Positions 7,884 through 48,707 of a stretch of 64,000 nt of DNA are shown here, in pieces. A program made the translations under genes and the position numbers. The stretch comes from Patescibacteria group bacterium (lineage in GTDB: Bacteria; Patescibacteriota; Minisyncoccia; Moranbacterales; UBA2206): contig JAKLIG010000002.1 of NCBI GenBank assembly GCA_022709735.1, positions 130,028-194,027 on the forward strand, given 5' to 3'. The notes beneath the pieces were generated by a model that ran no database searches, had not been told where the DNA came from, and saw only the letters and a list, made by a program, of their open reading frames with translations. Numbering within the stretch: the first letter of the stretch is position 1; each line of letters opens with the position of its first letter.

Positions 7884-10445
7884 TTACGGAATTGTTGTCT
7901 TTACGGAAATACTTTTTGAATCAGTGTCGCCGTTCTTATCTTCAATAGTCGCCTTAATTGAAAGGGTGGTATTTTTTTTAGAATCAGGAACGGAATAAGT
8001 ATAACTTAACGAAGAATCAGAGGAAGAGGTAATATTATCGCCCTCAATAGACAGGGTGATTTTTTTAACTCCGAAAGGTGCATTTGCTTTGGCTTTAATA
8101 GTAAAAGAAGATGAGGTGATCGTGTCTCCATTCGAAGGGGAAGAAATATCGACACTAGGTTTGAATTTTTTAAAATCATCCGCCTTGCATTCTTTTTCTG
8201 GTGTTGGTCGAGAAGAATAGCCGTCCTTTTTATCTAGCCACTTTTCAATAGCCTTTTCCCAATTCTTAAATTGCGGATCATCTTCTGGATCTTTTGGAGC
8301 ATCTCCGCGCGGATCATCTTTTTGAACATAATAAAGAATAGAATGAGCATCGGCAAATTTTTTCTTATCTCTTTCGGATTCTGGGCAATTATCATTTGCT
8401 AAGCAATAATCATTAGATCCGGGAATTTTGCAAACAGATATTTCTTTTTTATCATCCAGTTTTCCATCTAAAACATCCTTGCCAGTTTCTTCTTTTTCAT
8501 ATTTAGGAAACTCTTCAATATTATAATTAGCCAAGGCCTTGTCCATAAATTCCCGCCAAATCGGTGCAGCAACATAAGAACCATCGGCCCCCTTGGCCAT
8601 TATGGAATTGTCGTTATTTCCTGCCCAAACACCAGCGACAAGCGAAGGAGTATAGCCGATTGTCCAACCATCTCGCCATTCATTGGTTGTTCCAGTTTTA
8701 GCGGCGACTGGGCGGTCATCAAAACGCAAAGGATTTTTTTCGCCAAAGACTGGAGCGCGAAGATCATTGGTGGATAAAATATAATCTATCATTGACACAT
8801 ATTTTTCTTCAATCACTCTTTGTCCATCACTGGGTTTGTATTGTTCCAGCACATTCCCACTGCCATCCTCTACTTTTAAAATAGAAATAATTGAATGGTG
8901 GATTCCGCCGGTAGCAAAAGTAGAAAAAGCATTCACATGATCAATAAGTTTAACTTCACCTCCGCCAAGCACTAAAGATAAACCATAATCATCAGGATTT
9001 TTAAGCGTGGTTATTCCCATTTTGTGAGCAGTATCGATGGAGTTTTGTACGCCGGCTAAATATAATGTTTCAACGGCCGGGACATTAAGAGACATTGCTA
9101 GGGCGTCTTTCATTTTGAGAAGTCCGCGATTTTCGCCGTCATAATTTTTTGGATTATATTCTTTTCCGCTGTCAGTGGAAAAATTAGTATCCACATCCCA
9201 AAGATTAGTTTCGGGCGTATAACCTTTTTCAAAGGCAGTTAGATAAACATAAGGCTTGAAAGAAGAGCCGGGCTGGCGAAGGGCAGTAGCTACATTGAAA
9301 TTTCCTTCAAACTGGCAATTTTTTCCGGAGATGCAACCAGTTGGCGTTGCTTTTCCGAAATAATCTTTTGATCCAACCATCGCTAAAACTTGGCCAGTTT
9401 TTGGATCCATTGCTACAAGCGCTTGGTTGTTAGATTTATAAACTTTTGCATCTTTTTCGGAATTATTTTTTATCGCTTCTTCAGCAATTTTTTGTTTATC
9501 CCAATCAAGCGTGGTATAAACTTTGAGCCCGCCTTGTTCCACCATTTGCTCGCCGTATTTTTTTTCAAGCATTTCCTTGATGTACATCACAAAATGCGGA
9601 GCGCTGATATTATCCGAGAAGGGTTTTATTTTTGAAAAAACATCTGTTTCTTTGGCAGTGTTCGCTTGATCTTCGGTGATGCATCCAAGCTTAACCATTT
9701 GATCCAGAGCATATTCTTGGCGAGCTTTTAGATTTTCAGTATGACTGCCGTAAGGAGAATAATAAGAGGGTGCTTTGGGAAGTGAAGCTAAGAGGGCGGA
9801 TTCATCAAGCGTGAGCTCGCTGGCATGTTTGCCAAAAAAAGTTTGGGAGGCGGATTCTACGCCATAAGCATTAGAGCCATAAGGAATTTCATTGAGATAC
9901 ATCGCAAGAATTTCATTTTTTTCAAACTTTTGTTCGAGTTCAAGAGCCAGAATAACTTCTTTAATTTTTCGGGTAAAAGTTTTTTCCGAAGTAAGAAGAG
10001 ATTGTTTGATAAGTTGTTGAGTTATAGTTGACCCGCCTTGTGCGGCGCCAAGATTAAAAATGTCTTTGAACGCAGCGCGCAAAATACTTTTCGGCTGAAT
10101 GCCGATATGATTATAAAAAGCCTGGTCTTCGAGAGCAATGGCAGCAAACTTGATTGTGTCAGGCATTTGCTCGAAAGGAATTTCCGTTCTTTTTTCTTCG
10201 CCATGAACTTCATAAAGAAGATGATCTCCGGTGCGGTCGTAAATTTTGGTTGATTGCACGACAAAGCGCTTATTGAGATTTCCTGGGCTTGGAAGATCTT
10301 TGGCAAACCAAGCGAAAACACCGACTGTAAAAAGTAAAATAATTCCAAAGAAAATCAGTGACCATTTTCTCAAGAATTTCCAATTAATCCTAAAATGCTT
10401 TTTCCCAGAAAAATCACTCCTATTTCTATGCTTAAATATATACAT
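7884..10445 (-). CDS. class A penicillin-binding protein (glycosyltransferase + transpeptidase) with a C-terminal Ig-like extension
   Basis: GT51 motifs (EDQAFYNHIGI, GGSTITQQL); transpeptidase SSFKP (SxxK) and KTGTT. Possible own promoter TTGAAA-17-TAAAAT on the minus strand in the 10446-10514 gap. Confidence 0.9.
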   Translation of the reverse strand: MYIFKHRNRSDFSGKKHFRINWKFLRKWSLIFFGIILLFTVGVFAWFAKDLPSPGNLNKRFVVQSTKIYDRTGDHLLYEVHGEEKRTEIPFEQMPDTIKFAAIALEDQAFYNHIGIQPKSILRAAFKDIFNLGAAQGGSTITQQLIKQSLLTSEKTFTRKIKEVILALELEQKFEKNEILAMYLNEIPYGSNAYGVESASQTFFGKHASELTLDESALLASLPKAPSYYSPYGSHTENLKARQEYALDQMVKLGCITEDQANTAKETDVFSKIKPFSDNISAPHFVMYIKEMLEKKYGEQMVEQGGLKVYTTLDWDKQKIAEEAIKNNSEKDAKVYKSNNQALVAMDPKTGQVLAMVGSKDYFGKATPTGCISGKNCQFEGNFNVATALRQPGSSFKPYVYLTAFEKGYTPETNLWDVDTNFSTDSGKEYNPKNYDGENRGLLKMKDALAMSLNVPAVETLYLAGVQNSIDTAHKMGITTLKNPDDYGLSLVLGGGEVKLIDHVNAFSTFATGGIHHSIISILKVEDGSGNVLEQYKPSDGQRVIEEKYVSMIDYILSTNDLRAPVFGEKNPLRFDDRPVAAKTGTTNEWRDGWTIGYTPSLVAGVWAGNNDNSIMAKGADGSYVAAPIWREFMDKALANYNIEEFPKYEKEETGKDVLDGKLDDKKEISVCKIPGSNDYCLANDNCPESERDKKKFADAHSILYYVQKDDPRGDAPKDPEDDPQFKNWEKAIEKWLDKKDGYSSRPTPEKECKADDFKKFKPSVDISSPSNGDTITSSSFTIKAKANAPFGVKKITLSIEGDNITSSSDSSLSYTYSVPDSKKNTTLSIKATIEDKNGDTDSKSISVKTTIP

Positions 10446-12822: not shown

Positions 12823-14217
12823 TTATTTATTTACATCAATTAAAAACTTCCCCAAATTTTTCTTACCGATTATTATCGGCATTTTTAAATTCGAGCGATC
12901 TATTATGGAAACTTTTGCTAAAAATTCTATATTATCCATAATAATATTTATATTTACCATCGGTCGATATGTTGTTCCATGGGAAGAATGAATAATGGCA
13001 GTATCGGCTAAATCAGGAATATTTTTAAAAATTTCTTTTCTTTGCTCGGGAGTTAAATTTTTAATTTGTTCATAGCTAATATTCAAATTCTCATATTCTA
13101 AAACCGTATTTTCAAAACCCAACTGTTTAGCTAGCTCTGTATCAATTGAAGAAAATCCTGCTCCAGTGTCAATTTTTGCTTCTACCTCAATTTCTTTTCC
13201 ATCTTTTCCAATGAGTTTCACTTTCTCTACTGTGCCGATGACGCGCCGGCCGGAAATTCCTTCCAATTCTTCTTCGATTTCTCCTCCAAAAAGATCTTTT
13301 CCGACGCGGACGCCTTTTTCGACGGTTTTTATTTTTATTCCGGCTGCTTTCTTGAGTCTTTCTTTGAGGCCGGAAAGATTGGCAATTTGAATGGAAAGTC
13401 CTGGGCGGGCGTTGAGCTCGATAATGGTCGGGCCTTTGATTTTATCAATCGCAATGTCAGCGCCTAAAAAACCAAGACCGGAAAGTTCCTGCGCTCGCAC
13501 AGCTAATTTCAAAATATCATTCCAATAAGGAATTCTAATTCCAGATAACAAAAGGCGAGTATCGGGAGCATATTCGATAAATTTATTTTTCCCCGAAACG
13601 GCGGTAGTAGTTGTGCCAGTAGCCATGTCGATGCCGACCCCAATAGCCCCTTGCTGAAGATTGGCTTTGCCGGAAGAATTTTTGGTTGGAAGGCGAAGCA
13701 TTGCCATAAGGGGAACTTTGTTAAAAACAATTACTCGAATGTCCGGGATGCCTTTGTAACAATAGGGCTTGAAAAGTTTTAGAAGTTGCAATCTTTCTTC
13801 AAAAAAAGCGATGTCCGGCGTTCCGGAAAGAGAAAAAGAACCGTCCAAAATATTTCGAATGTGCGCTTTTAAATCTTCTATAGAAACAAGAGAACGATCA
13901 GCTTTTATCCACACATCAGTTTGATTCTTCTTTTTTCCATAAACCACTAAAATTCCTTCTCCACCGAAACCGCGATTTGGTTTCAGGGCAAAACTTTCTG
14001 GCAATGTTTGCCAGTCAAAATTTTCGAGCTCCGCATAGTTTCTTATTTTTGCCAAAAGTTGTGGGACAGCTAAATTATTATCTTTAAGAATTTTTTTGCT
14101 AAGAAGCTTGTTATCTGCGATTTTTTTGGCGCGCGCCAAATTGAACGGCCTGATATATTCCAGGTTTCGAGAATTCATTCCAAGAATTTGCCGGCTAAGT
14201 TTTAGAAACTCAAACAT
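12823..14217 (-). CDS. RimK-like ATP-grasp (alpha-L-glutamate-ligase-like) fused to a C-terminal retropepsin-like aspartic peptidase domain
   Basis: ATP-grasp core (KPNRGFGGEGI, IIELNARPGLSIQ); C-terminal ~150 aa carries KIDTGAG (D-T-G-A catalytic motif of clan AA peptidases). Confidence 0.65.
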   Translation of the reverse strand: MFEFLKLSRQILGMNSRNLEYIRPFNLARAKKIADNKLLSKKILKDNNLAVPQLLAKIRNYAELENFDWQTLPESFALKPNRGFGGEGILVVYGKKKNQTDVWIKADRSLVSIEDLKAHIRNILDGSFSLSGTPDIAFFEERLQLLKLFKPYCYKGIPDIRVIVFNKVPLMAMLRLPTKNSSGKANLQQGAIGVGIDMATGTTTTAVSGKNKFIEYAPDTRLLLSGIRIPYWNDILKLAVRAQELSGLGFLGADIAIDKIKGPTIIELNARPGLSIQIANLSGLKERLKKAAGIKIKTVEKGVRVGKDLFGGEIEEELEGISGRRVIGTVEKVKLIGKDGKEIEVEAKIDTGAGFSSIDTELAKQLGFENTVLEYENLNISYEQIKNLTPEQRKEIFKNIPDLADTAIIHSSHGTTYRPMVNINIIMDNIEFLAKVSIIDRSNLKMPIIIGKKNLGKFLIDVNK

Positions 14218-14221
14218 AAAA

Positions 14222-14872
14222 TTATAAATGTTTCATTATTTTTCGAAACCGAAAATATTCGCTCACACGAAGCCCGGTCCATTTTCCAAGAAGAATATTA
14301 ATTGGAATAGTGAGGATAACCACCCAAGGATAAAGAGCCAAAAAATGAATGAGAATTTTTGAGCTAGCAATGAAAAATCCTAAAATTGAAATAATCAAAG
14401 TTTCAATGGCCAAAAAAATTGCAGCTTTGTCGCCTTTTTCAATTTGAACGGCGATGAATTTTTCAACTATTGTGATCATAATGAGAATTGGAAAAATAGA
14501 AACCGCTGCGAGACCTGTTCTTTTGAATTCTCCGCCAATCACTAAAATTCCCAAAATTAAGAAAGCGACGATGGTGAGCATGATAGCCACTCTTGGAAGA
14601 TAAAGCAGGCGGAATGGCTTCAAAACAAAACGCATCAGCATCCCGGTAAAAATAACCGTGACAAAAATCGCGATGCCATATTTGAGACCGTTTGTAGCCA
14701 AAAAGGCGAAAGTTACAATGAGCGGAGCATAAATTCCAAAAGCTTTAATACCAACCACTTGTCGAAGAAATGCGATAAAAGTGGCGATGATTGGAAGCAT
14801 CAAAATCAAAATAACCGTGGTGAAAGGCACGCCTTGATTTATGAAAAAGTTAATAATAGGGCTAACATTCAT
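14222..14872 (-). CDS. 7-transmembrane integral membrane protein (partner of the ATP-grasp/peptidase)
   Basis: 216 aa with seven hydrophobic helices; 4-nt gap to the downstream ATP-grasp gene. Confidence 0.6.
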   Translation of the reverse strand: MNVSPIINFFINQGVPFTTVILILMLPIIATFIAFLRQVVGIKAFGIYAPLIVTFAFLATNGLKYGIAIFVTVIFTGMLMRFVLKPFRLLYLPRVAIMLTIVAFLILGILVIGGEFKRTGLAAVSIFPILIMITIVEKFIAVQIEKGDKAAIFLAIETLIISILGFFIASSKILIHFLALYPWVVILTIPINILLGKWTGLRVSEYFRFRKIMKHL

Positions 14873-14889
14873 ATTTTTTAGTTTATAAA

Positions 14890-15393
14890 TTAATGGTTTA
14901 AATTATTTAATTTCCGGCTATTTAAATGACAGATGGCAATCGCAATGGCGTCCGCTGTGTCATCGGGTTTCGGCAGTTTTTCCAAATGCAAAATATTTTT
15001 TGTCATCATTTGCATTTGTTTTTTCTCGGCTCGGCCATATCCGGTGATCGCTTGCTTTACTTGGAGCGGAGTATAACTCGAAACTCTAACATTATTTTGC
15101 TTTAAAGTCAAGAGAATTGCGCCTCTGGCTTGGGCCACAGTGATGATTGTTTTTTGATTTTTAAAAAAGAAAATTTCTTCCACTCCCGCTTCCTGTGGTT
15201 TATATTTTGCAATTATCTTTTCAATATCCCTCGAAATTTCCAAAATCCTTTCCGCGTCAGTTTTTTGAGGCGAAGTAGCAATATGCCCATAAGAAACCGG
15301 TTCTATTTTTCCGTTTTTTTCTTCTAGTATCGCCCAGCCAGTGGTGGCGGTGCCAGGATCAATTCCTAAGACGCGCAAGTTATCATTTTTCAT
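14890..15393 (-). CDS. ruvC: crossover junction endodeoxyribonuclease RuvC
   Basis: MKNDNLRVLGIDPGTATTGWAILEE... catalytic Asp in GIDPG; 167 aa. Confidence 0.85.
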   Translation of the reverse strand: MKNDNLRVLGIDPGTATTGWAILEEKNGKIEPVSYGHIATSPQKTDAERILEISRDIEKIIAKYKPQEAGVEEIFFFKNQKTIITVAQARGAILLTLKQNNVRVSSYTPLQVKQAITGYGRAEKKQMQMMTKNILHLEKLPKPDDTADAIAIAICHLNSRKLNNLNH

Positions 15394-15451
15394 AGCTTAA
15401 TTATACTTCCAAAACGAGTTTTTTAAAAGTTTTTTGAGACAAAAAAATAAC
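15323..15451. repeat. direct repeat copy 1 (ruvC 5' end + upstream); about 96% identical to 16217-16344
   Basis: tctagtatcgcccagccagtgg...gacaaaaaaataac is present twice, with 5 mismatches over ~128 nt. Confidence 0.85.
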
Positions 15452-15538
15452 CTGAAAGGCTATTGGTTGAGATTTTGGCACAAATAATCCAGCTGGGACG
15501 ACTTTTCGATGTTGTTTAGTTGATTATGATTGAAATTT

Positions 15539-16153
15539 CTAATTGGGTATGATAGAAAAATATCCGACGGGTGTTTTAATAATTTTACCGCCCCAAGACT
15601 CAACTTCTTTTTTTGAATAGCGCTTTATAGCGGTGAAATCTTCCATTATAAAACTATCATTTTTGATACAATTAATTTTTAAATTAATTGATTTAAAATA
15701 TTCTTGAGCCAAGCCATTATCAAATTCTTCTCCGTATACAGAAATAATGATGACTTTGCCAAGCTCCTTCATTTTCGCAATGGATTTGTCCTGTTCTGGA
15801 ATGTATCCCAATGTGTTGTTGAGACAAATCACATAATCAAAATGAGGCAAGGCCGGAGGATTAGTAATATCGCCATGAATAAAATTTACACAGAGACCTG
15901 CTATGGCGATTTTTTGTTTTGCGAGTTCTACTAAAGAAGCTTCAATTTCAAGGCCAGTAATTTTCAAATCAGGACGAACTTCAAGTAAACGAATAGCTCT
16001 TGCTCCATCCATACTGCCAACTTGCAAAACACGAGCATTTTTTGGGAGCATAAGACGTAGCAGGTCAATTTCTTTGAGCCAATTATCTCTATTTGGTTTT
16101 GGTATATTTTCTAAAACGTCACAGTTTACATACACATCTTTTAATGAGGGCAT
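15539..16153 (-). CDS. class I SAM-dependent methyltransferase (cargo of the insertion)
   Basis: Motif I VLQVGSMDGARAI; acidic post-I LEIE; 204 aa. Confidence 0.7.
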   Translation of the reverse strand: MPSLKDVYVNCDVLENIPKPNRDNWLKEIDLLRLMLPKNARVLQVGSMDGARAIRLLEVRPDLKITGLEIEASLVELAKQKIAIAGLCVNFIHGDITNPPALPHFDYVICLNNTLGYIPEQDKSIAKMKELGKVIIISVYGEEFDNGLAQEYFKSINLKINCIKNDSFIMEDFTAIKRYSKKEVESWGGKIIKTPVGYFSIIPN

Positions 16154-16216
16154 ATTGAATTAATGAAAAAATGAGTTTTTACAAATTATCGAAAATTTCT
16201 TCTATTTTAATTTTTT

Positions 16217-16344
16217 CTAGTATCGCCCAGCCAGTGGTCGCTGTGCCGGGATCAATTCCCAAGACGCGCAAGTTATCATTTTTCATAGCTTAATTATACT
16301 TCCAAAACGAGTTTTTTAAAAGTTGTTTGAGACAAAAAAATAAC
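16217..16344. repeat. direct repeat copy 2. It carries a fossil ruvC start fused to a fossil yebC 3' end (16172-16200 copies the yebC stop region).
   Basis: Minus-strand reading from ATG (cat at ~16288-16290) gives MKNDNLRVLGIDPGTATTGWAILEKIKIEEIFDNL*: ruvC N-terminus joined to the yebC C-terminal residues EEIFDNL. Confidence 0.8.
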
Positions 16345-16562
16345 TCAAGAAGGTTATTAATAAAAATTTTTATTTATTTCGCTTAACATATGAGTATATC
16401 AAATGTTTGCCGAAGCGAAGAGAATATAAATAAAAGTGAGGGAGTTTTGCGTTTCTTTGCGTTTGGTCCGTCCGCCTTGACAGATTGATTGTTTTTCGCT
16501 TTACTACTACGATGTTTAGTATGTATTTTTGATAAATTATACCAATCAAAGGAGGTGAGAAA

Positions 16563-16785
16563 TTTGGAAAAATTTACACGCGAACATCTTTTAAATGTAT
16601 GTAAGTTAGGACAACGCGCAGAAACCTGCAGTTATTTAGTTCTTGGAGTTGATGGTATGGAGTGTGCTAAAGGATCGGCAACTTCTGGACTTACAACAGA
16701 AATCTTTTTGAAAAGAGAGCAGGGGTCCATGACGGCTATGGGCGATAACTGTGAAGGAAGAGAGGGGTCGGTCAAAAACGCTTGA
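16563..16785 (+). CDS. small Cys-containing hypothetical protein in a locally higher-GC segment
   Basis: Strong SD aaggagg followed by TTG/ATG; ...NVCKLGQRAETCSYLVLGVDGMECAKG...; composition noticeably more GC-rich than the flanks. The start is uncertain; the track ORF begins at 16489. Confidence 0.4.
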
Positions 16786-16852
16786 GCAACGCTTGGGCCA
16801 AATCAATTTGCCCGTTCGTTAATGTTGATATACAACACACGAGCGGGCTTTT

Positions 16853-17566
16853 TTACAAATTATCAAAAATTTCTTCCACATCTTCCTGCTCGTCCAATGC
16901 TTCGAGAAGTTTTTCGTAGTCTAAGCGCGTGGTGTTGTCAATAGAAAGAGTGGATTTTGGGAGATAAGAAAGACCGGATTCTAAAACTTTCAAATTATTT
17001 TGCACTAATTTTTCTTGAACTTTTTGCAAATTATTTTGTTCAGTAAAAACTAGCAAATTATCAGCGTCTATTTTTATATCTTTCGCTCCGGCATCAATCG
17101 CGATCATTTCAAGTTCGTCAATATTTTTGTCCTTTGCATCGATAATAATATTTCCGACTTGTTCGAAATTCCACATTGCACTGCCGGCCTCGCCGAATTT
17201 CCCGCCGGATTTTGTGAGAATGGTTTTGATTTCACTCACTGTCCGATTTTTGTTGTCGGTCACGGCTTTGATAAGCATCATTATTCCTCCCGGTCCCATC
17301 GCTTCATAAGTTATTTCTTCTATTGCATTGCCCTTGAGTTCTCCCGTTCCGCGCTTAATAGCTTTGTCAATGTTGTCTTTGGGCATATTAAATTCGCGGG
17401 CTTTATCCATAGCCATTCGAAGTTTGAAATTTGTGTCTGGGTTGCCGCCGCCTTCCTGCGCAGCGATGACGATTGGTTTGGCAAGGCGAGTGAAAATTTT
17501 AGCGCGCTTGGCGTCATTCACGCCTTTTCTTTGCTTAATTCCCGCCCAATGAGAGTGTCCTGACAT
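16853..17566 (-). CDS. yebC: YebC/PmpR-family transcriptional regulator
   Basis: MSGHSHWAGIKQRKG... canonical YebC N-terminus. I place the start at 17566 rather than the track's 17593. Confidence 0.85.
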   Translation of the reverse strand: MSGHSHWAGIKQRKGVNDAKRAKIFTRLAKPIVIAAQEGGGNPDTNFKLRMAMDKAREFNMPKDNIDKAIKRGTGELKGNAIEEITYEAMGPGGIMMLIKAVTDNKNRTVSEIKTILTKSGGKFGEAGSAMWNFEQVGNIIIDAKDKNIDELEMIAIDAGAKDIKIDADNLLVFTEQNNLQKVQEKLVQNNLKVLESGLSYLPKSTLSIDNTTRLDYEKLLEALDEQEDVEEIFDNL

Positions 17567-17585
17567 ATAAATAAAATTAATTGTA

Positions 17586-17607
17586 GGGAACAAAAATTTT
17601 TGTTCCG
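17586..17607. repeat. perfect palindrome GGAACAAAAATTTTTGTTCC between the LTD-protein gene and the yebC start
   Basis: Read directly; could be an RNA hairpin, a terminator for the upstream minus-strand gene, or an operator. Confidence 0.4.
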
Positions 17608-17660
17608 TACGGATTTATAATTTAATGGTAGCATTTTGAGGCGGAAAATTCAAGGGAAAA

Positions 17661-19463
17661 TTATATTTTCAAAATCAGATAATTTAAGAAAGAATTTGTT
17701 TTTGTCCAAATATTTTCTGAAAAATTTAGAGCCCAGTGTTTTTTGTTTTCAGGCTTTGTAAAAGTATAAAAATTTTCTTGGAATCTTAAATTTTCTGCAC
17801 CTAAAACCCGTTTATTCTGATCTAATAATTTTTCTGGTAAATTTATATTATGGCTTGAATAGGCTAATTTTTGGCGGTTTTTTTGCCTTTTTTGCCAATC
17901 CGATGAAAGGCTGTATTTGCCAAGATTGGTTTGGATTTCGGAAGCGGAAATATTAAAATTTGTTTCTTCTTGTGGAAGAGAAGGAGTTGCTATTTTATTT
18001 ATTTCTGTTGTAGAGAAGCCCAAATTGGGCGTCTCTACATTTCCGGCATTCCACACCCATTTATTATTTTTATTTTTTTCATAAATTTCATCTTCTGCGA
18101 TTTTATCTTTTTTTCGATCATATTTTATTTTTTGCACGACTTTTCCGGATGGATCACGAAGCTCGATTTTAGTTTTTTCATTTCCTAGCGTGAAAGCGCA
18201 AATTTTTTTAGTGAGCTTTTTTGTTTTGCCTTTTTTGATTTTGAAATCTTCTCGAATCGGGTGATTGACTAACTTCTCTTTGCCGGTAGCAATCGACCAA
18301 TTTTTAAGATTAATTTTGTCTTTAGATTCATTTTTAATTTCAATCCACTCATTTTTTGTGTCGCTTCCTTTTGGATTAGGCGAGATGCTTTTTATTCTAA
18401 TTTTTGGAGCATTATATTTTTCAACTTTAACTTCGAATTCATAAACCTTATCTTCTCCATCTCCGGTGATTTTGAGGCTACCTTTATATTTCCCAGTTTT
18501 TTCATATTTATGCTTGGTTTTTTTGAGATAGCTTTTATGGTCGTCGCCGAAATTCCAAGTAAATTTTTTTGCGTCATCATCAGCCAAAACATCGAAATAG
18601 GCATAAGTATTTTTGTATATTTTTTTAGGTAAGATTATTTTTCCTGACAAAATTTTGTCAAAACTATTTTCTCCACCGGGAGTAGATAGCGATGTCCAGC
18701 GCCAGGAAGAGCCATCGAAAGAAAAGGAATGAGCAGATTTTGTTGAGGAATATTTTTGGCTATCAACCAAGTTGCCATTTTTATCATGAAGAAAAACAGT
18801 ATCGCCGTTAGAATCATTGTTTAGGGAAAACGACCCATAAAAAACATAAAAGTTTCCATTTTTTTCATGTTTGGAAATTTTCCCTTTTGTTCCTTTGGAA
18901 TCTTTTATGACCCAGTCAGAGAAATCAATTTCTTTTCCGCTCGAATTTATTATTTCCACAAATTCCTCCTCTCCATTTTTGGTATCCGGCGCGGGATAAA
19001 TCTCATTGATTTTTATTCCAGAATAATTTGGTTTTTCTTCTTCTTCGGAATCGTCATCTTCTTCCCAGTTTATACTGTCAATAATTATTCCAGAATCCGT
19101 ATTGCCAAGAATTATGGCAATACCATTGTCTTCAGAAATAACACTACTTTTACTCGTATTGGCCCAAAGATAAATTTCTTTGGCAGGGATAATATCCTTA
19201 CTTCCGAATGATTTTATGCTAGTTTTTGTTCCAGTGGATGCTTTTTTAACAAGTCTATATCCATCTAGTTTAATTTCCTTGTCTGTTGTGTTGGTAATTT
19301 CTATAAAATCTTCTTCAGTTTTTCCGGGTCCTCCTGTATATTGCACATTTGTAATTTTTAAAACTGGCTCGGCCAGACAAATTTTTCCCAAAATAAAAAA
19401 GCTAGCTAAAATAACCAGCCCATAAATAAAAAAACAATAAAAATTATTTTTGTTTTTATCCAC
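17661..19463 (-). CDS. membrane-anchored secreted protein with three lamin-tail-domain (LTD)-like repeats
   Basis: N-terminal TM; repeated motifs EDFIEITNTTDKEIKLDGYRL, EEFVEIINSSGKEIDFSDWVI, NEWIEIKNESKDKINLKNWSI. Confidence 0.55.
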   Translation of the reverse strand: MDKNKNNFYCFFIYGLVILASFFILGKICLAEPVLKITNVQYTGGPGKTEEDFIEITNTTDKEIKLDGYRLVKKASTGTKTSIKSFGSKDIIPAKEIYLWANTSKSSVISEDNGIAIILGNTDSGIIIDSINWEEDDDSEEEEKPNYSGIKINEIYPAPDTKNGEEEFVEIINSSGKEIDFSDWVIKDSKGTKGKISKHEKNGNFYVFYGSFSLNNDSNGDTVFLHDKNGNLVDSQKYSSTKSAHSFSFDGSSWRWTSLSTPGGENSFDKILSGKIILPKKIYKNTYAYFDVLADDDAKKFTWNFGDDHKSYLKKTKHKYEKTGKYKGSLKITGDGEDKVYEFEVKVEKYNAPKIRIKSISPNPKGSDTKNEWIEIKNESKDKINLKNWSIATGKEKLVNHPIREDFKIKKGKTKKLTKKICAFTLGNEKTKIELRDPSGKVVQKIKYDRKKDKIAEDEIYEKNKNNKWVWNAGNVETPNLGFSTTEINKIATPSLPQEETNFNISASEIQTNLGKYSLSSDWQKRQKNRQKLAYSSHNINLPEKLLDQNKRVLGAENLRFQENFYTFTKPENKKHWALNFSENIWTKTNSFLNYLILKI

Positions 19464-19496
19464 CCTTTTATCTATTTGAAAAAAATAAATAGAAAG

Positions 19497-20090
19497 CTAA
19501 ACAACATCTTCGTGATGAATTTTTTCTCGAAGCATTTTTCCAAATTCATTTTCTTCCTTATTTTCCAATTCTTTTTGTAGTTTCATGATTAAATCTTTAA
19601 CAGAATAAGGATCTGGAATTTGTCTGAATCTAAATCTTTCTCGTTCACCGGCAGTTTGGACTAAAAGGTCGCCATAATTGAAAAAAGTTGGAATAATTCC
19701 TCGAACATCAGTAGTGACATCTTGAATTTTTTCCAGTTCTAGTTCGCTTACGACTCTTGTGAAGAGACCCTTTTGCTCAACATTGATTATTCTTTCATTA
19801 GTGACTATCCAAACGTCAAAATAGAAATCAATCCAAATAACAAAGAAAAGCAACCAAACAAAAAGGAAGAAAAGACTGCGGACAAAAGAAGCAAGACTGA
19901 AAAAAATTTGGGGGCTAAACTCATTGAAAAAATAAGAAGAGAGGGTATAGCTACCAAGGATAATCGCTAATATTAAAAAAACAATGGAAAAATGACCAAG
20001 AATATTTAACCAGTGGCGGTGAAGAACTGCCAGAATTTCTTCGTCATCTTTTTGTCCTTCAAAATGATAATGAGTAAAATTCAATTGCAT
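19497..20090 (-). CDS. membrane protein with a bacterial PH-like (YdbS/YdbT-type) domain
   Basis: Two N-terminal TM helices followed by a ~100-aa soluble domain. Confidence 0.4.
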   Translation of the reverse strand: MQLNFTHYHFEGQKDDEEILAVLHRHWLNILGHFSIVFLILAIILGSYTLSSYFFNEFSPQIFFSLASFVRSLFFLFVWLLFFVIWIDFYFDVWIVTNERIINVEQKGLFTRVVSELELEKIQDVTTDVRGIIPTFFNYGDLLVQTAGERERFRFRQIPDPYSVKDLIMKLQKELENKEENEFGKMLREKIHHEDVV

Positions 20091-20095
20091 ATGAA

Positions 20096-20323
20096 TTAGC
20101 TAAAAAAAAGAATTTTTGAAAATAAAGATTCCCAATCTATGGAGAAAAAAAATATTATATTCGCGAAAAAAAGTATAGCAGAAATTATTATAAAAATAGG
20201 AAGCATTATTTTATTTATTTCTGCATGGATGGAATAGCGATGAAGATGATAAACAATAAAGATAGCGATAAAAATAAAAGAAACAAGAAGAATAGTATAA
20301 AGGGTAAGAATTATGTAAAACAT
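20096..20323 (-). CDS. small hydrophobic membrane protein (75 aa)
   Basis: Two predicted TM helices; weakly supported. Confidence 0.3.
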   Translation of the reverse strand: MFYIILTLYTILLVSFIFIAIFIVYHLHRYSIHAEINKIMLPIFIIISAILFFANIIFFFSIDWESLFSKILFFS

Positions 20324-20329
20324 AGATTT

Positions 20330-21334
20330 TTATAAAAGCTTATTTTCGCTGTTATATTTTATGCCTAAATGCAAATAAGCAGCTTCGGTCGCGATTCGAC
20401 CCCGCGGAGTTCTGGCTAAAAATCCGATTTGGATTAGATACGGTTCATAAACATCTTCAATAGTTTTGATTTCTTCCGAAGTAGCGGCGGCGATTGTTCC
20501 AAGTCCGACTGGTCCGCCATGAAATTTTTCAATAATGGTTCGAAGAATTTGTTTGTCCGCCGGTTCGAGGCCCAATGGATCAACATCAATCATTGCTAAT
20601 GCTTCCTCGGCTACAGCTTCATTTATAATATCATGATTTTTTATTTGCGAAAAATCACGTACTCGTTTCAAAAGCCGGTTAGCCACTCTTGGAGTGCATC
20701 TGGCGCACTCGGAAATTTTTGAAAGACCGGTGTCATCGGCTTTGACTCCCAAAATTTTTGCGGAGCGCTCTAATATTTTTTTAATCTCCGGATTAGTATA
20801 AAATTCCAAGCGATGCACTGCGCCAAAACGGTTTCGAAGGGGATTAGAAATTGAACCAAGCTTGGTTGTTGCTCCAATCAAAGTAAACTTCGGCAGATCA
20901 AGTTGAATTGTTCGGGCTGATGGACCTTTGCCGATAATAATGTCTAGCTTATAGTCTTCCATCGCAGGGTAGAGAATTTCTTCGATTGACTTATTGAGTC
21001 TATGAATTTCATCGATAAACAAAATATCGCCATCGGAAAGATTGGTGAGAATTGATCCGAAATCGCCGACACGTTCAATTGCTGGTCCGGAAGTAGTTTT
21101 TATCGCCACGCCCATTTCCTTGGCGATGATATTGGCCAAAGTTGTTTTTCCCAGTCCCGCCGGGCCATATAAAAGTACATGCTCGATAGATTCCTTTCTT
21201 TTTTTAGCAGCCTGGATCAAAATATCCAAATTTTTCTTAACCTTAATCTGTCCGACATATTCATCGAAATTTTGCGGTCGAAGCGTAACATCAAAAGTCA
21301 AATCTTCCGGTTGTTCATTGGAGGTTGTAATCAT
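20330..21334 (-). CDS. ruvB: Holliday junction branch migration ATPase RuvB
   Basis: [22 protein letters not shown] Walker A; sensor motifs; 334 aa. Confidence 0.95.
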
Positions 21335-21356
21335 AATAATTGCATTATACAGCTGT

Positions 21357-21385
21357 TTGACAAATTTTCCAAGTTATGCTATGCT
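21357..21385 (+). promoter_or_regulatory. sigma70-like promoter TTGACA-17-TATGCT followed by a ~245-nt structured leader
   Basis: ttgaca aattttccaagttatgc tatgct. The downstream leader contains long-range complementarity TGCAGGCAA (21443-21451) / TTGCCTGCA (21567-21575). Confidence 0.35.
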
Positions 21386-21637
21386 CCGGGGTCATCTAAT
21401 TTAACCATTTTTTATGGTCAAATTGGTGGCTAGCAGTAAATTGCAGGCAATTGGTGGCTTCTATCTTTTGTCATCAATATAGAAACAGCTTTCAAGACAT
21501 GGGTAGGGTGGGTTCGTCCTGCGCTATTCCTCGATATTGTTTCTTTTCTCGGGGTCCTACTTCGAGTCCTTGCCTGCAGATTAGTGTAACTTTTAATTTA
21601 AAATAAAACAGTTTTTTGACAACCGAAAGGGGAAAAT

Positions 21638-21922
21638 ATGAAATCATTAATATTAATATTTAGTTTTAGTCAAGCTGACTTGATCAGTTTTATTTTTTTT
21701 CTAGGTTTTTTTCTTTATCTTTTAATTAAATGGGTTAGAGAAGAAAAGGGAAATTTTTTGATAAAAATAATTGCATCCATCGCAACCCCGCTAATTGTGG
21801 GTGCAACGTTATTTTTGTTGGGAGCATTGGGATTTCTGGCCTGCTCATGGATTTTAAGTATTTTAGGAATTAAAGGCTGGATCGTTGCTAAAACAATCTG
21901 GTTTTTACAATTAATAAAATAA
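21638..21922 (+). CDS. small membrane protein (94 aa)
   Basis: SD aaagggga; three TM segments. Confidence 0.5.
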   Translation: MKSLILIFSFSQADLISFIFFLGFFLYLLIKWVREEKGNFLIKIIASIATPLIVGATLFLLGALGFLACSWILSILGIKGWIVAKTIWFLQLIK

Positions 21923-21938
21923 AAAAAACTCTTTAAAA

Positions 21939-22199
21939 ATGAAAGGACGGTGTTTTATGAAAAAAATCATTTTGGTTGTAGTGTTATTAAGTATGTTTTT
22001 GCTTGTAGGTTGCAGTGACAATCCACAGGAAAGAAACATGCAAGGTATGTCGGTCATGCTGGCTGGTATAATGGTTAATATCTGGTTAGGAATTATGGCC
22101 ACACATAATTATTCAAGAGAACTCAAAAAATTATTAATTTTTTTATGCAAGAAAAATGGGGCATCAGAAAAAGATATTAAAGAAATACTCAAAAAGTAA
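21939..22199 (+). CDS. lipoprotein (signal peptide + lipobox LLVGC)
   Basis: MKKIILVVVLLSMFLLVGCSDNPQ... Confidence 0.55.
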   Translation: MKGRCFMKKIILVVVLLSMFLLVGCSDNPQERNMQGMSVMLAGIMVNIWLGIMATHNYSRELKKLLIFLCKKNGASEKDIKEILKK

Positions 22200-22232
22200 C
22201 CAGGCGCGGAGGGCCTGGCGAGAAAAATAAAA

Positions 22233-22268
22233 AGGACTGAGCTATTCAGATAGACAGTCCTTTTTTTA
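22233..22268 (+). terminator. rho-independent terminator
   Basis: AGGACTG(22233-22239)...CAGTCCT(22255-22261) followed by TTTTTTT. Confidence 0.7.
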
Positions 22269-22410
22269 ATGTCTAATTTTAATATAAGGCTAAAGGCTAA
22301 ATATAATTTTTAATTTTTGAATTTTTAATTTTATAAATAAATCTTAATTCTTAAATTTTTAAACATTAGAAATTAAAGCATTATTTAAAAATTATAAAAT
22401 TAAAAATTTT

Positions 22411-35438: not shown

Positions 35439-35440
35439 TT

Positions 35441-35775
35441 GTACTTTTTCTCGCCGTGAGAAAAAGTACCAAAAAGAACTCTCAGCCCAATTTTGTCTCT
35501 GACAAATTTTCAGCTGGCTCGCTAAAATTTATGTTCCGCTTCGCTCCATAATAAATTTTTTAACGCTCGCCAGTTTCAATTTGCCTGCCTGCCGGTAGGC
35601 AGGTATCATCGCCAAAATAGGCTGAATGAAAATTAGAAAAATAAAATTTACAGCGAAGGGAGCAGAAAAGTTGAGCTTTAATGGGAAGCCTAAGATTTTC
35701 AAAAAGCTCAACTTTAATGAAGCGCAATTTTTTCAAAATAAAAACACTCCCTTTGCAGGGAGTGTTTATTTTTAC
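35441..35775. repeat. ~330-bp non-coding repeat element, copy A (5' hairpin, conserved 130-nt core, variable middle, conserved hairpin, 3' terminator hairpin)
   Basis: About 85-90% identical to 48386-48707 across aactctcagccYaattt...cgcttcgctccataataaattttttaacgctcgc and gttgagcttta...aaagctcaactttaatgaag...ttttttcaaaataaaaac. Terminal hairpin CACTCCCT-TTGC-AGGGAGTG (35745-35764). Confidence 0.6.
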
Positions 35776-45082: not shown

Positions 45083-45990
45083 TGTATAATTTATTTATGA
45101 GCACGCTTTATACTCAAGCTGACAAGAATACCCGCCTAACCTGGATTTATATCACCGGATTTTTGATTTTTGTCATTGGCGTGGGTTATGTTTTTGCCGG
45201 AGCGATGAATAATAGCGTGATTTTATACATTGCAGTAATCTTCTCTGTTGTGATGAGTTTTGCATCATACTGGTGGAGCGATAAAATTGTTCTGGCGATG
45301 TCGAGCGCAAAAGAATTGAAGCATGAAGACAACCCGCAAATTTATCATCTTGTTGAAAATCTTTGCATCACGGCGGGACTTCCAATTCCAAAAATTTATA
45401 TAATTCAAGACACCGCGATGAATGCTTTCGCGACGGGAAGAGATCCGGCGCACGGCGTAATTTGTCTCACAACCGGTATAATTTCCCGCCTAGAAAAAAC
45501 GGAACTCGAAGGCGTGATTGCGCACGAGCTTTCGCACATCGGGAATCGCGATATTTTGCTTTCTACGGTGGTTGTAATTTTAGTTGGATTTGTCACACTT
45601 CTAGCGGATTGGTTTCGTCACTGGGCTTTTTTTGGAAAAAAAGGGTCGGACAGCGAAGGCGGAGGACAGCTTAGAATGATTCTTATAATTTTAGCAATAG
45701 TTCTTTCAATCCTGGCGCCGATTGCGGCGACGCTAATGCAACTCGCGATTTCTCGAAAAAGAGAATTTCTAGCCGATGCTGATGGAGCGCTACTCACTCG
45801 CTATCCCGAAGGACTGGCTAATGCACTTTCAAAAATTTCTACTGATACTGAACCGCTGGAAGCCGCCAATCGCGCCACGGCCCATCTTTTTATTGCCAAT
45901 CCTTTCAAAGGCAAAAAAGTAATGAAATTTTTTATGACCCACCCACCAATCGAAGAGAGAATAAAGGCGCTAAAAGGGATGAATGTTTAA
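45082..45990 (+). CDS. htpX: M48 zinc metalloprotease HtpX
   Basis: HELSHIGNRD (HExxH); four TM helices. Confidence 0.85.
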   Translation: MYNLFMSTLYTQADKNTRLTWIYITGFLIFVIGVGYVFAGAMNNSVILYIAVIFSVVMSFASYWWSDKIVLAMSSAKELKHEDNPQIYHLVENLCITAGLPIPKIYIIQDTAMNAFATGRDPAHGVICLTTGIISRLEKTELEGVIAHELSHIGNRDILLSTVVVILVGFVTLLADWFRHWAFFGKKGSDSEGGGQLRMILIILAIVLSILAPIAATLMQLAISRKREFLADADGALLTRYPEGLANALSKISTDTEPLEAANRATAHLFIANPFKGKKVMKFFMTHPPIEERIKALKGMNV

Positions 45991-46042
45991 TCAGATAAAT
46001 AATTATTTTTATTTTATTTTGAAATAGGTAGGCGGGCAGGCC

Positions 46043-46095
46043 CACCCACCAATCGAGGAGAGAATAAAAGCGCTTCGAGACATGAATGTCTAACA
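46043..46095 (+). repeat. fossil duplicate of the htpX 3' end (~85% identical to 45938-45990), ending in its own TAA
   Basis: cccacccaccaatcgaGgagagaataaaAgcgct... versus the htpX tail ...cccacccaccaatcgaAgagagaataaaGgcgct... Confidence 0.5.
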
Positions 46096-48374: not shown

Positions 48375-48385
48375 TTCTTTTTTTT

Positions 48386-48707
48386 ACTTTTTCTTTCCGC
48401 AAGAAAAAGTAACAAAAAGAACTCTCAGCCTAATTTCGTCTCTGACAAATTTTCAGCTGTCTCGCTAAAATTTATGTTCCGCTTCGCTCCATAATAAATT
48501 TTTTAACGCTCGCTAGCTTCAATTTGTGTCATCGTCGAAATGGGCTGAAATAAAATACAAGGAAATTCTTGAAATAAATTTAGAATATATTTGGAAAAGT
48601 TGAGCTTTAGGGCGGAGCCTAAACTGTTCAAAAAGCTCAACTTTAATGAAGAGCCAGAATTTTTTCAAAATAAAAACCCCGGGCGGATGGTGATCACGCT
48701 CGGGGCC
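48386..48707. repeat. ~330-bp non-coding repeat element, copy B
   Basis: See copy A. 5' hairpin TACTTTTTCTT-TCCGC-AAGAAAAAGTA; 3' hairpin CCCCGGGCG...CGCTCGGGG (48677-48705). Confidence 0.6.

Follow-up and report, generated by a model that had tools for sequence, protein, structure and literature searches.

Duplicated gene ends and a ruvC::yebC chimeric joint in a variable islet between yebC and ruvC of Candidatus Moranbacteria

How did two unrelated genes come to lie between yebC and ruvC, with copies of the ends of both flanking genes left among them? The question is posed by a stretch of 64,000 nucleotides (nt) of contig JAKLIG010000002.1 (assembly GCA_022709735.1, positions 130,028 to 194,027 of the forward strand), referred to below in its full length as the window. 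The source is a metagenome-assembled genome of Candidatus Moranbacteria, a member of the Candidate Phyla Radiation (CPR)/Patescibacteria. The original prediction, made from the letters of the DNA, had described one 1.4-kb insertion flanked by direct repeats. Our analysis resolves the same DNA into two single-gene cassettes lying head to tail, and the locus is best read as two alternative islet alleles, each of the form yebC-[cargo]-ruvC, stacked between the two genes.

Anatomy of the islet and divergence of the repeated gene ends

We denote by A the last 8 codons of yebC together with the stop codon and 5 further nt, and by B a hairpin followed by the promoter-like sequence TTTAAA-16-TATAAT and the first 24 codons of ruvC. 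Cassette X encodes a small protein with four cysteines and cassette M a protein of the methyltransferase fold. Read along the gene strand, the order is yebC ending in A1, then X, then B2 fused to A2 (the joint B2::A2), then M, and finally B1 leading into ruvC; all of these are on the minus strand except X (Table 1). A yebC-end element thus stands on one side of each cassette and a ruvC-start element on the opposite side, which is the reason for reading the locus as two alleles placed head to tail. X and M have no sequence in common, and ruvC and yebC both remain intact.

The two B copies form a direct repeat of 134 nt with 95.5% identity and 6 mismatches, as determined by repeat search and BLAST, and are one of only three pairs of direct repeats of at least 100 nt in the window. 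The 128 nt and 5 mismatches initially given for this repeat were essentially right. The homology of the B copies runs ~26 nt further upstream, through the hairpin, at ~62% identity, and beyond the hairpin it drops to 46%, which is background. The A copies match over 27 nt (96% identity, 1 mismatch), the yebC-end copy extending to 'GAAGAAATTTT(C/T)GATAATTTGTAAAAA', and their similarity ceases 5 nt past the yebC stop codon. In both pairs the similarity therefore ends exactly at the borders of the islet, namely 5 nt past the yebC stop in A and, in B, at the hairpin that precedes the ruvC promoter. A near-copy of the yebC stop region to the left of the second B copy had been noticed in the original prediction, as had a small chimeric open reading frame (ORF) made of the start of RuvC and the end of YebC; both are borne out by our search. 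The latter is a chimera of 35 codons, whose product MKNDNLRVLGIDPGTATTGWAILEKIKIEEIFDNL consists of RuvC residues 1-24, a filler of 3-4 residues and the last 7-8 residues of YebC. The small cysteine-containing ORF had been placed between the long repeats. It is located outside the 134-nt pair, between the two copies of the yebC end.

This mini-ORF is most likely a by-product of the joint. It is probably non-functional, since the corresponding joint at another locus (L011, see below) is out of frame and the peptide is not conserved. Its stop codon lies 23 nt before the methyltransferase ATG, the same spacing that the cassette would have behind yebC. By its position, B2 would put a second copy of the ruvC promoter upstream of both the mini-ORF and the methyltransferase gene, and B1 would drive ruvC itself, following the hairpin and T-run with which the methyltransferase gene ends. 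The -10 box is TATAAT throughout the clade and is located 6 nt from the ruvC ATG (window positions 15394-15427 and 16287-16320), a spacing which suggests that the ruvC mRNA is leaderless.

A wrong concatenation of two strain variants, one carrying X and the other M, was weighed as the origin of the arrangement, and the original prediction had itself named an assembly artefact as a possible refutation. The genome is metagenome-assembled, and the contig of an independent Logan assembly (SRR5007146, locus L163) breaks inside the B2 repeat; such a break is also what is expected of a true repeat. This contig is 100% identical to window positions 16295-22332 and carries the B2-specific base joined to X. 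The B copies differ at 6 sites, and the unique sequence held by the B2::A2 joint must exist in the reads. The final k-mer of 141, as given by the contig name, exceeds the longest identical stretch of ~64 nt. An ENA contig of 194 kb (k141_889471) has the same structure and matches the window at 100% over 12.6 kb. Several long contigs in NCBI, JGI and ENA also carry the exact proteins. With the copy-specific base reproduced by an independent assembly and a joint that is unique, we regard an artefact as highly improbable.

We compared the locus with 99 other loci that carry both genes, drawn from genome and metagenome collections. In 84 of these yebC abuts ruvC, with a gap of <300 nt and often an overlap. 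The adjacency is therefore ancestral and the 1.46 kb in the window is acquired DNA, in keeping with what the original prediction held on both points. A gap of at least 900 nt, filled with different cargo, is present in 13 of the 99. Wherever RuvC shares at least 80% identity with that of the window (11 loci), a variable islet (1.0-4.5 kb) is present, compared with an islet of at least 1 kb in only 2 of the 88 more distant loci. The Moranbacteria loci are syntenic around the two genes, which have LTD on the upstream side and 7TM_transglut/ATP-grasp on the downstream side. The cargo of the relatives differs by genome and includes an AbiEii/AbiEi toxin-antitoxin pair (the sole cargo in L168), several Fic/DOC proteins, a zeta toxin, an AAA_14/DUF4143 ATPase, Vut_1 and NMN transporters, YdjM, flavodoxin and TrmB regulators. 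Neither the methyltransferase nor the small ORF of the window was found in any of the relatives' islets. A Pfam search of 20 ORFs from relatives' islets and of the window genes, together with precomputed matches for L164 and L168, gave no integrase, transposase or relaxase. None of these genes is present in the ~6 kb on either side of the window locus either, so that the absence of such genes, as claimed from the sequence, holds in the islet and in its flanks. ARAGORN found no tRNA or transfer-messenger RNA gene near the site that could have been an attachment site. The best explanation is that yebC-ruvC is a hypervariable islet of accessory genes in this Moranbacteria clade, with turnover by recombination anchored in both flanking genes.

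The few differences between the repeat copies are informative. Four of the 6 differences in B fall in ruvC codons 9, 13, 15 and 16, all of them synonymous and at the third position; the other two are a non-coding difference at -39 and one that borders the joint. The single difference in A is also synonymous (TTT in A1, TTC in A2). All five coding differences (4 in ruvC, 1 in yebC) are thus synonymous, where a share of only 22-27% would be expected among random substitutions in these 32 codons. The corresponding probability is ~0.0005-0.0014, or ~0.01 by our estimate if half of the changes arose in the selected copy. This pattern indicates that both copies diverged as parts of working genes, in two different genomes.

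We assigned polarity to the differences in B from 11 relatives, and to the TTC change from those relatives whose yebC ends were read. In B2 the hairpin is the one typical of the clade, but -39 and codons 9, 13 and 16 are derived; B2 has, for example, GCG where all 11 relatives, and B1, have GCC. The reverse holds for B1, whose hairpin is atypical and whose bases at -39 and at the same three codons are typical. A2 has the derived TTC. The derived states are contiguous and so make up one block, which runs from -39 in B2 through the joint, A2 and M to the hairpin of B1. Judged by these sites, the block reads as a circular permutation of a yebC-M-ruvC islet allele. The hairpin segment has 10 differences in 26 nt versus 6 in 134 nt in B (Fisher p = 1e-5), and this abrupt change in divergence points to a recombination breakpoint, with the crossover between the hairpin and -39.

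Table 1. Features of the islet and its flanking genes, in window coordinates
Feature	Position	Strand	Evidence or remark
ruvC, intact, 167 amino acids	14890-15393	-	Pfam RuvC PF02075, 2e-49, full length; exact protein annotated RuvC of Candidatus Moranbacteria
B1, functional repeat copy: 58 nt 5' of ruvC and first 76 nt of ruvC	15318-15451	-	Repeat search; clade-typical third positions and -39 base
Terminator-like hairpin and T-run, 3' of the methyltransferase gene, clade-atypical	15452-15477	-	Folding, -6 kcal/mol
Cassette M, class I SAM-dependent methyltransferase-fold protein, 204 amino acids	15539-16153	-	Pfam, AlphaFold2
Short spacer from fossil yebC stop codon to methyltransferase ATG	16154-16175	-	Homology to L083-L086
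A2, fossil yebC end (last 8 codons, stop, 5 nt)	16176-16202	-	27 nt, 1 mismatch to 16850-16876
Chimeric mini-ORF, 35 codons	16179-16286	-	Translation; the B2::A2 joint read through
Junction filler AAAATTAAAATA (minus strand), between clear ruvC and clear yebC scar parts	16203-16214	-	12 nt, A/T
B2, fossil ruvC promoter and first 24 codons, upstream of mini-ORF and methyltransferase gene	16211-16344	-	Copy-2-specific base confirmed in L163
Hairpin and T-run beside B2, clade-typical, conserved right border of the islet	16345-16370	-	Folding and clade comparison
Cassette X gene, 73-76 amino acids, AGGAGG ribosome-binding site upstream	16555/16564-16785	+	Homologue family
Stem-loop then T-run, terminator of the small ORF, between convergent small ORF and yebC	16810-16848	+	-22.7 kcal/mol, z = -4.8, 0/200 shuffles as stable
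A1, functional yebC 3' end, original of A2	16850-16876	-	Repeat search
yebC, intact, 238 amino acids	16853-17569	-	Pfam PF20772 and PF01709

Formation of the arrangement and its rival explanations

We consider it probable that the two islet alleles were stacked by one microhomology joint and one homologous crossover, as the following sequence of steps would have it. A close relative would have carried yebC-M-hairpin-promoter-ruvC. A piece of its locus of ~0.9 kb, from 27 nt before the yebC stop to ~76-95 nt into ruvC, would have had its ends joined at an A-rich microhomology (GAAGAAA or GAA), linking ruvC codons 24-33 to yebC codon -8. Either a circle would have resulted or, in the donor, a tandem array, with the ruvC5'::yebC3' joint in it. 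A single RecA-type crossover with a resident yebC-X-ruvC chromosome, within the shared ruvC promoter and 5' segment, would then have duplicated that segment (B2 and B1) around the insert and left both essential genes intact. The methyltransferase gene would come to lie downstream of the duplicate ruvC promoter and of a short chimeric ORF, and no recombinase of the element's own would be required. A close relative as the source of the insert is indicated by the repeat copies, which differ only at synonymous or non-coding sites.

The direct duplication of B flanks A2 and the methyltransferase gene, as in integration of the Campbell type, and the B copies fit a mosaic of reciprocal donor/recipient hybrids, on ~6 sites and one hairpin. 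An illegitimate joint at a short microhomology (GAA or GAAGAAA) is present beside a homologous anchor. Homology-facilitated illegitimate recombination (HFIR) in its classical form typically deletes recipient DNA between anchor and joint; here the anchor is duplicated and nothing is deleted. In Escherichia coli experiments, single crossovers with circular molecules gave anchor duplications of 109-950 bp, and HFIR was expected to give deletions in the recipient (PMC3240628). The original prediction had proposed illegitimate or homology-facilitated recombination. A homologous exchange together with an illegitimate joint does explain the duplicated junction best; classical HFIR fits less well, the duplicated anchor being the signature of a single crossover with a circle. 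Patescibacteria are reported to keep genes for homologous recombination and a machinery for DNA uptake (PMC12455944).

Scars of a similar kind are clearly seen at two other loci, L011 and L006, and possibly at a third, L009; the loci L011 and L009 were read over 10.7 kb. L011 (UBA4824) has a chimera of the ruvC start and the yebC end at 8886-8939, out of frame. A zeta-toxin gene comes after a gap of 17 nt, and the locus closes with another copy of the ruvC promoter region, which probably belongs to the intact ruvC. In L006 a duplication of 45 nt of the yebC 3' end flanks the AAA_14/DUF4143 gene. L009 has a fossil of the ruvC 5' end, ~31 codons long, with a terminator and a possible degenerate end of yebC as its last part. 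The scars look like independent events, since their breakpoints differ. The chimeric junction pattern was not found among viral contigs in a scan of IMG/VR.

Three further observations concern these loci. At L006 5690-5720, the functional YebC has ...FDNIAS* as its C-terminus in place of ...FDNL* as a result of the AAA_14/DUF4143 insertion, and the original end is the downstream fossil. Direct repeats internal to the islet are present in L006 (9071-9134 and 9759-9822, 64 nt, 100%) and in L011 (8245-8308 and 9912-9976, 65 nt, 85%); they bracket small ORFs, a hint of additional duplication or stacking. Sequences of the type CCGCTACGCTTCG...GGCAAAC, rich in G+C, flank cassettes in the L083-L086 flanks, in L006 at ~9836-9860, upstream of ruvC in L007 and L011, and at 16403-16420 of the window. 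They may be an intergenic repeat family that marks the borders of cassettes. Within the window the border-type motif is single-copy, and the motif CTTCGCTTCGGCAAACAT of cassette X is not repeated elsewhere in it.

Several points count against the stacking of two alleles by a joint and a crossover. We found no genome with a single allele, yebC-M-ruvC or yebC-X-ruvC, the most similar other RuvC having only 85% identity, so that donor and recipient are ones that we infer and did not observe. A near-identical strain lacking one cassette was not found either, exact-protein look-ups returning the same arrangement only. The argument from polarity depends on ~6 point differences and one hairpin, in a comparison whose outgroups are close to saturation at synonymous sites. 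The 12-nt A/T filler makes the exact breakpoint in ruvC ambiguous: a breakpoint at codon 24-26 would be followed by filler, and one at codon 33 would imply small deletions. The motif GAAGAAA is common to ruvC codons 24-26 and yebC; the filler aligns weakly with ruvC codons 26-33, and 113 of 2000 shuffles do equally well. Finally, the ruvC breakpoints in the three genomes with a 5' fossil are all within the first 70-95 nt of the gene, and the yebC parts of the scars, where seen, come from the last ~30 nt of yebC. Such clustering is not accounted for by illegitimate recombination that is simply random. Candidate causes are the A-rich microhomology, selection against longer truncated fragments, and horizontal spread of cassettes that carry the joint.

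The same clustering can be turned in favor of a duplication in situ, which we hold to be rather unlikely. Unequal exchange or slippage at GAAGAAA in one chromosome would have duplicated the islet, different cargo would then have been lost or replaced in the two halves, and gene conversion would keep the B copies similar; the scaffold could be old and common to L011 and L009. The same type of scar in L011, and possibly L009, fits such a history, independent random events being unlikely to hit the same ~30-nt windows. The exact 7-nt direct repeat is at the right places in both genes, and a 134-nt repeat at a distance of 0.9 kb is a plausible substrate for gene conversion. Yet the breakpoints differ among the window, L011 and L009, which have no cargo in common, and the closer relatives (L005-L008, L164 and L168) are without the scar. 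The duplication would take at least three events (the duplication itself and two precise complementary losses of cargo, or one replacement), compared with one joint and one crossover. The lack of shared sequence between X and M, with similarity stopping exactly at the islet borders, does not favor it, nor does the synonymous nature of all five coding differences, even of those that are derived in the non-functional copy.

A linear route in one step would give the same gene order as the circular one from a single event, and only the polarity mosaic disfavors it, a further point to be set against our preferred reading. A linear fragment (yebC 3' end-M-ruvC) would be anchored in ruvC, with its free yebC end joined at ~+76 to +95 of the recipient ruvC, that is, inside the anchor. 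Competence is plausible in Patescibacteria (PMC12455944), and the joint has 3-7 nt of microhomology, as has been described for HFIR joints (PMC5361080 and the references cited there). This route predicts that B1 is all donor and B2 all recipient, and the mosaic in the coding part is the opposite. In experiments it deletes recipient DNA, and the duplication of an anchor came from circular molecules (PMC3240628). We hold it to be unlikely. A dedicated site-specific system, in which an integron-like or integrative-element recombinase encoded elsewhere would use the ruvC 5' and yebC 3' ends as attachment sites, is suggested by the single-gene cassettes head to tail, by the hairpin after each of them, and by scars at nearly the same positions in three genomes. 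We judge it very unlikely, since no integrase, transposase or recombinase domain is encoded in the examined islets or in the flanks of the window locus, and the scan of viral contigs did not show the junction pattern. The flanking genes themselves are what the repeats copy, with lengths that vary by genome (27-45 nt and 70-134 nt) and no common core.

The stacking of two alleles, which we prefer, can be extended to a more speculative proposal, to which we attach little probability. The ruvC5'::yebC3' chimera would be a portable homology handle with a promoter, and the whole a self-propagating cassette array free of an integrase, a 'poor man's integron'. If so, any cassette with such a handle could be released as a circle when RecA recombines the repeats, and could then re-insert at the universally conserved ruvC 5' end of any relative, bringing its own promoter and stop/restart signals. 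A portable handle would also explain the same type of joint in the window, in L011 and possibly in L009.

The cargo genes and their base composition

Above the cutoffs, the protein of cassette M matches generic class I families of Pfam only, Methyltransf_25/31/12/11 (PF13649 and PF13847 among them; 44.9 bits for PF13649, cutoff 27). Its matches in NCBIfam are all far below the cutoffs. We collected 148 homologues of 47-78% identity in Patescibacteria and DPANN archaea. The family is tightly conserved, with a mean column identity of 65% and the invariant motifs VLQVGSMDGxR (the glycine-rich motif I), GDITxPP and DYVICLNNTLGYI. The AlphaFold2 model, with a predicted local distance difference test (pLDDT) score of 95.8, has alternating strands and helices, as in the Rossmann-like class I fold of S-adenosylmethionine (SAM)-dependent enzymes. 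The nearest solved fold is that of AzeJ, a SAM-cyclising azetidine-2-carboxylate synthase (template-modelling score 0.75-0.79), and the next structural neighbors are small-molecule methyltransferases such as RebM, TylM1, LahSB and NmbA.

The original prediction had suggested an orphan enzyme for modification of DNA or RNA. We find no support for this: there is no DNA or RNA methyltransferase among the top 50 structural neighbors, and no Pfam match to N6_Mtase, N6_N4_Mtase or MethyltransfD12. The motif (D/N/S)PP(Y/F/W) is absent after strand 4, where the family has the invariant CLNNTLGYI instead. An 'NPP' at residues 98-100 belongs to the GDITxPP loop before strand 4 and has no aromatic residue next to it. 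Cytosine C5 methylation is no better supported, with no Pfam match to DNA_methylase and no PCQ or ENV motif in the family alignment. By its model and its motifs, the protein is predicted to be a class I SAM enzyme of the small-molecule type, from an uncharacterised CPR/DPANN family, and not a DNA methyltransferase. The family may not consist of methyltransferases at all, because AzeJ, the best structural match, cyclises SAM and does not transfer its methyl group. A PADLOC match to mad2 (2.7e-10) was not counted in favor of a role in defense, as it covers only the generic SAM-binding region.

The nucleotide homology with loci of methyltransferase homologues (L083-L086) runs on through the spacer up to position 16185, which indicates that the spacer came in with the cassette. 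The genes next to five homologues encode Fic, a second methyltransferase, GNAT/DUF192 and thioredoxin reductase/glutaredoxin proteins. No neighbor is conserved among these five contexts, and no function can be assigned by association. One homologue, 75% identical, lies beside a Fic gene that is itself 75% identical to the Fic gene directly downstream of yebC in L007, an indication that the methyltransferase family travels in such islets. No relatives of the methyltransferase were found in IMG/VR.

The small ORF of cassette X had looked like an orphan in a word-index search. This was overturned by an exhaustive HMMER search, which gave a family of 422 representatives of 65-90 amino acids at E<=1e-3. 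They have the pattern C-x8-C-x11-C ... GDNC, in which C16, G19, C25, C37, D64, N65 and C66 are invariant. The family has no match in Pfam, PHROGs, NCBIfam, PADLOC or the PDB, and the AlphaFold2 model, though confident (pLDDT 87), has no fold match. With its AGGAGG ribosome-binding site and strong terminator, the small ORF is a real gene and a member of a widespread uncharacterised family. One homologue (P0245, in L172) adjoins a gene for a ZIP zinc transporter.

The small ORF lies in a patch of higher G+C, which was pointed out in the original prediction. The patch is real and modest: positions 16600-16799 have 47.5% G+C, compared with a window mean of 35.7%, and rank at the 98th percentile of 200-nt windows. 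The G+C at third codon positions (GC3), 0.34 in the small ORF and 0.28 in the methyltransferase gene, falls inside the host range of 0.27-0.41 in both cases. The higher G+C of the small ORF reflects its amino-acid content and not foreign codon usage. The idea of a donor foreign in composition was dropped, given the host-like GC3 of both cargo genes and the restriction of the differences between the copies to synonymous and non-coding sites. An RNA gene in the patch was also considered; the Rfam scan of 13000-19500 at E<=1 gave only a chance match to a snoRNA.

Other repeats were observed away from the islet. A second long pair of direct repeats in the window, ~12.9 kb apart, comprises 35439-35583 and 48382-48526 (145 nt, 92%) together with 35665-35725 and 48594-48654 (61 nt, 87%), and suggests another duplicated segment or paralogous genes. 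A tandem-like direct repeat at 45938-45990 and 46041-46093 (53 nt, 85% identity, spacing 103 nt), with a stop codon ending each copy, may reflect duplicated gene ends. Among the compared loci, L089 (10,119 nt) has a perfect terminal inverted repeat of 129 nt (1-129 and 9991-10119), which is probably an assembly artefact or, possibly, the mark of a hairpin-ended molecule.

Relation to known systems

The concept of integration hotspots, islets between core genes that lack mobility genes, is reportedly due to Oliveira, Touchon, Cury and Rocha in 2017. The yebC-ruvC locus resembles such a hotspot in that two syntenic core genes bracket a variable content with toxin-antitoxin and defense-type cargo. 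With no integrase present, turnover is presumed to proceed via homologous recombination in the flanks. It differs in that the physical scar of the acquisition, the duplicated gene ends and the chimeric joint, has been kept, and in its streamlined CPR host. Transposons and insertion sequences typically leave a short target duplication of 2-14 bp. The repeats here are 134 and 27 nt long and are copies of neighboring genes, there is no transposase, and the repeat search gave no terminal inverted repeats. Like the arrays of integrons, the locus has single-gene cassettes head to tail and proximal to a promoter, each followed by a structured element, with the insert placed behind a promoter. Unlike in integrons, no IntI is encoded within ~6 kb, the borders are copies of the ends of neighboring genes, and the hairpins are terminator-like; no attI or attC sites were seen, attC being judged by inspection only.

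The closest natural analogue is found in the orphan immunity or toxin-tip arrays of the Vibrio cholerae type VI secretion system and of Rhs and contact-dependent inhibition loci, which form by sequential displacement (Kirchberger et al. 2017, PMC5361080). There, too, a conserved upstream anchor is combined with an illegitimate joint, fossils remain, older modules are shifted along by each newcomer, and no integrase is involved. The anchor in those arrays is part of the polymorphic toxin gene itself, to which the cargo is functionally linked, whereas here housekeeping genes with no relation to the cargo are the anchors, and nothing has been displaced or truncated. HFIR (de Vries and Wackernagel 2002 and Prudhomme et al. 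2002, as cited in PMC5361080) and circular single-crossover integration (Amarir-Bouhram et al. 2011, PMC3240628) have in common with our preferred reading one homologous exchange, one microhomology joint and an anchor duplication that flanks the insert. Those were laboratory selections with engineered substrates, and here a natural event is deduced from sequence. The underlying mechanisms are already known from other bacteria, and the advance is incremental, a new example in a poorly studied phylum.

The CPR/Patescibacteria have tiny genomes and few recognisable mobile elements and are mostly without genetics, and their gain of accessory genes is largely a matter of inference. The present locus keeps the joints of one acquisition event at base resolution. 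It also flags two conserved uncharacterised families, the CPR/DPANN methyltransferase-fold enzyme and the 4-Cys protein of ~70 amino acids. The pair yebC/ruvC appears to be a landing pad where toxin-antitoxin, defense-type and orphan genes are swapped and stacked. Host recombination together with a microhomology joint would suffice for this, with both essential flanking genes kept intact, and the locus gives a concrete, testable site for engineering insertions in Moranbacteria.

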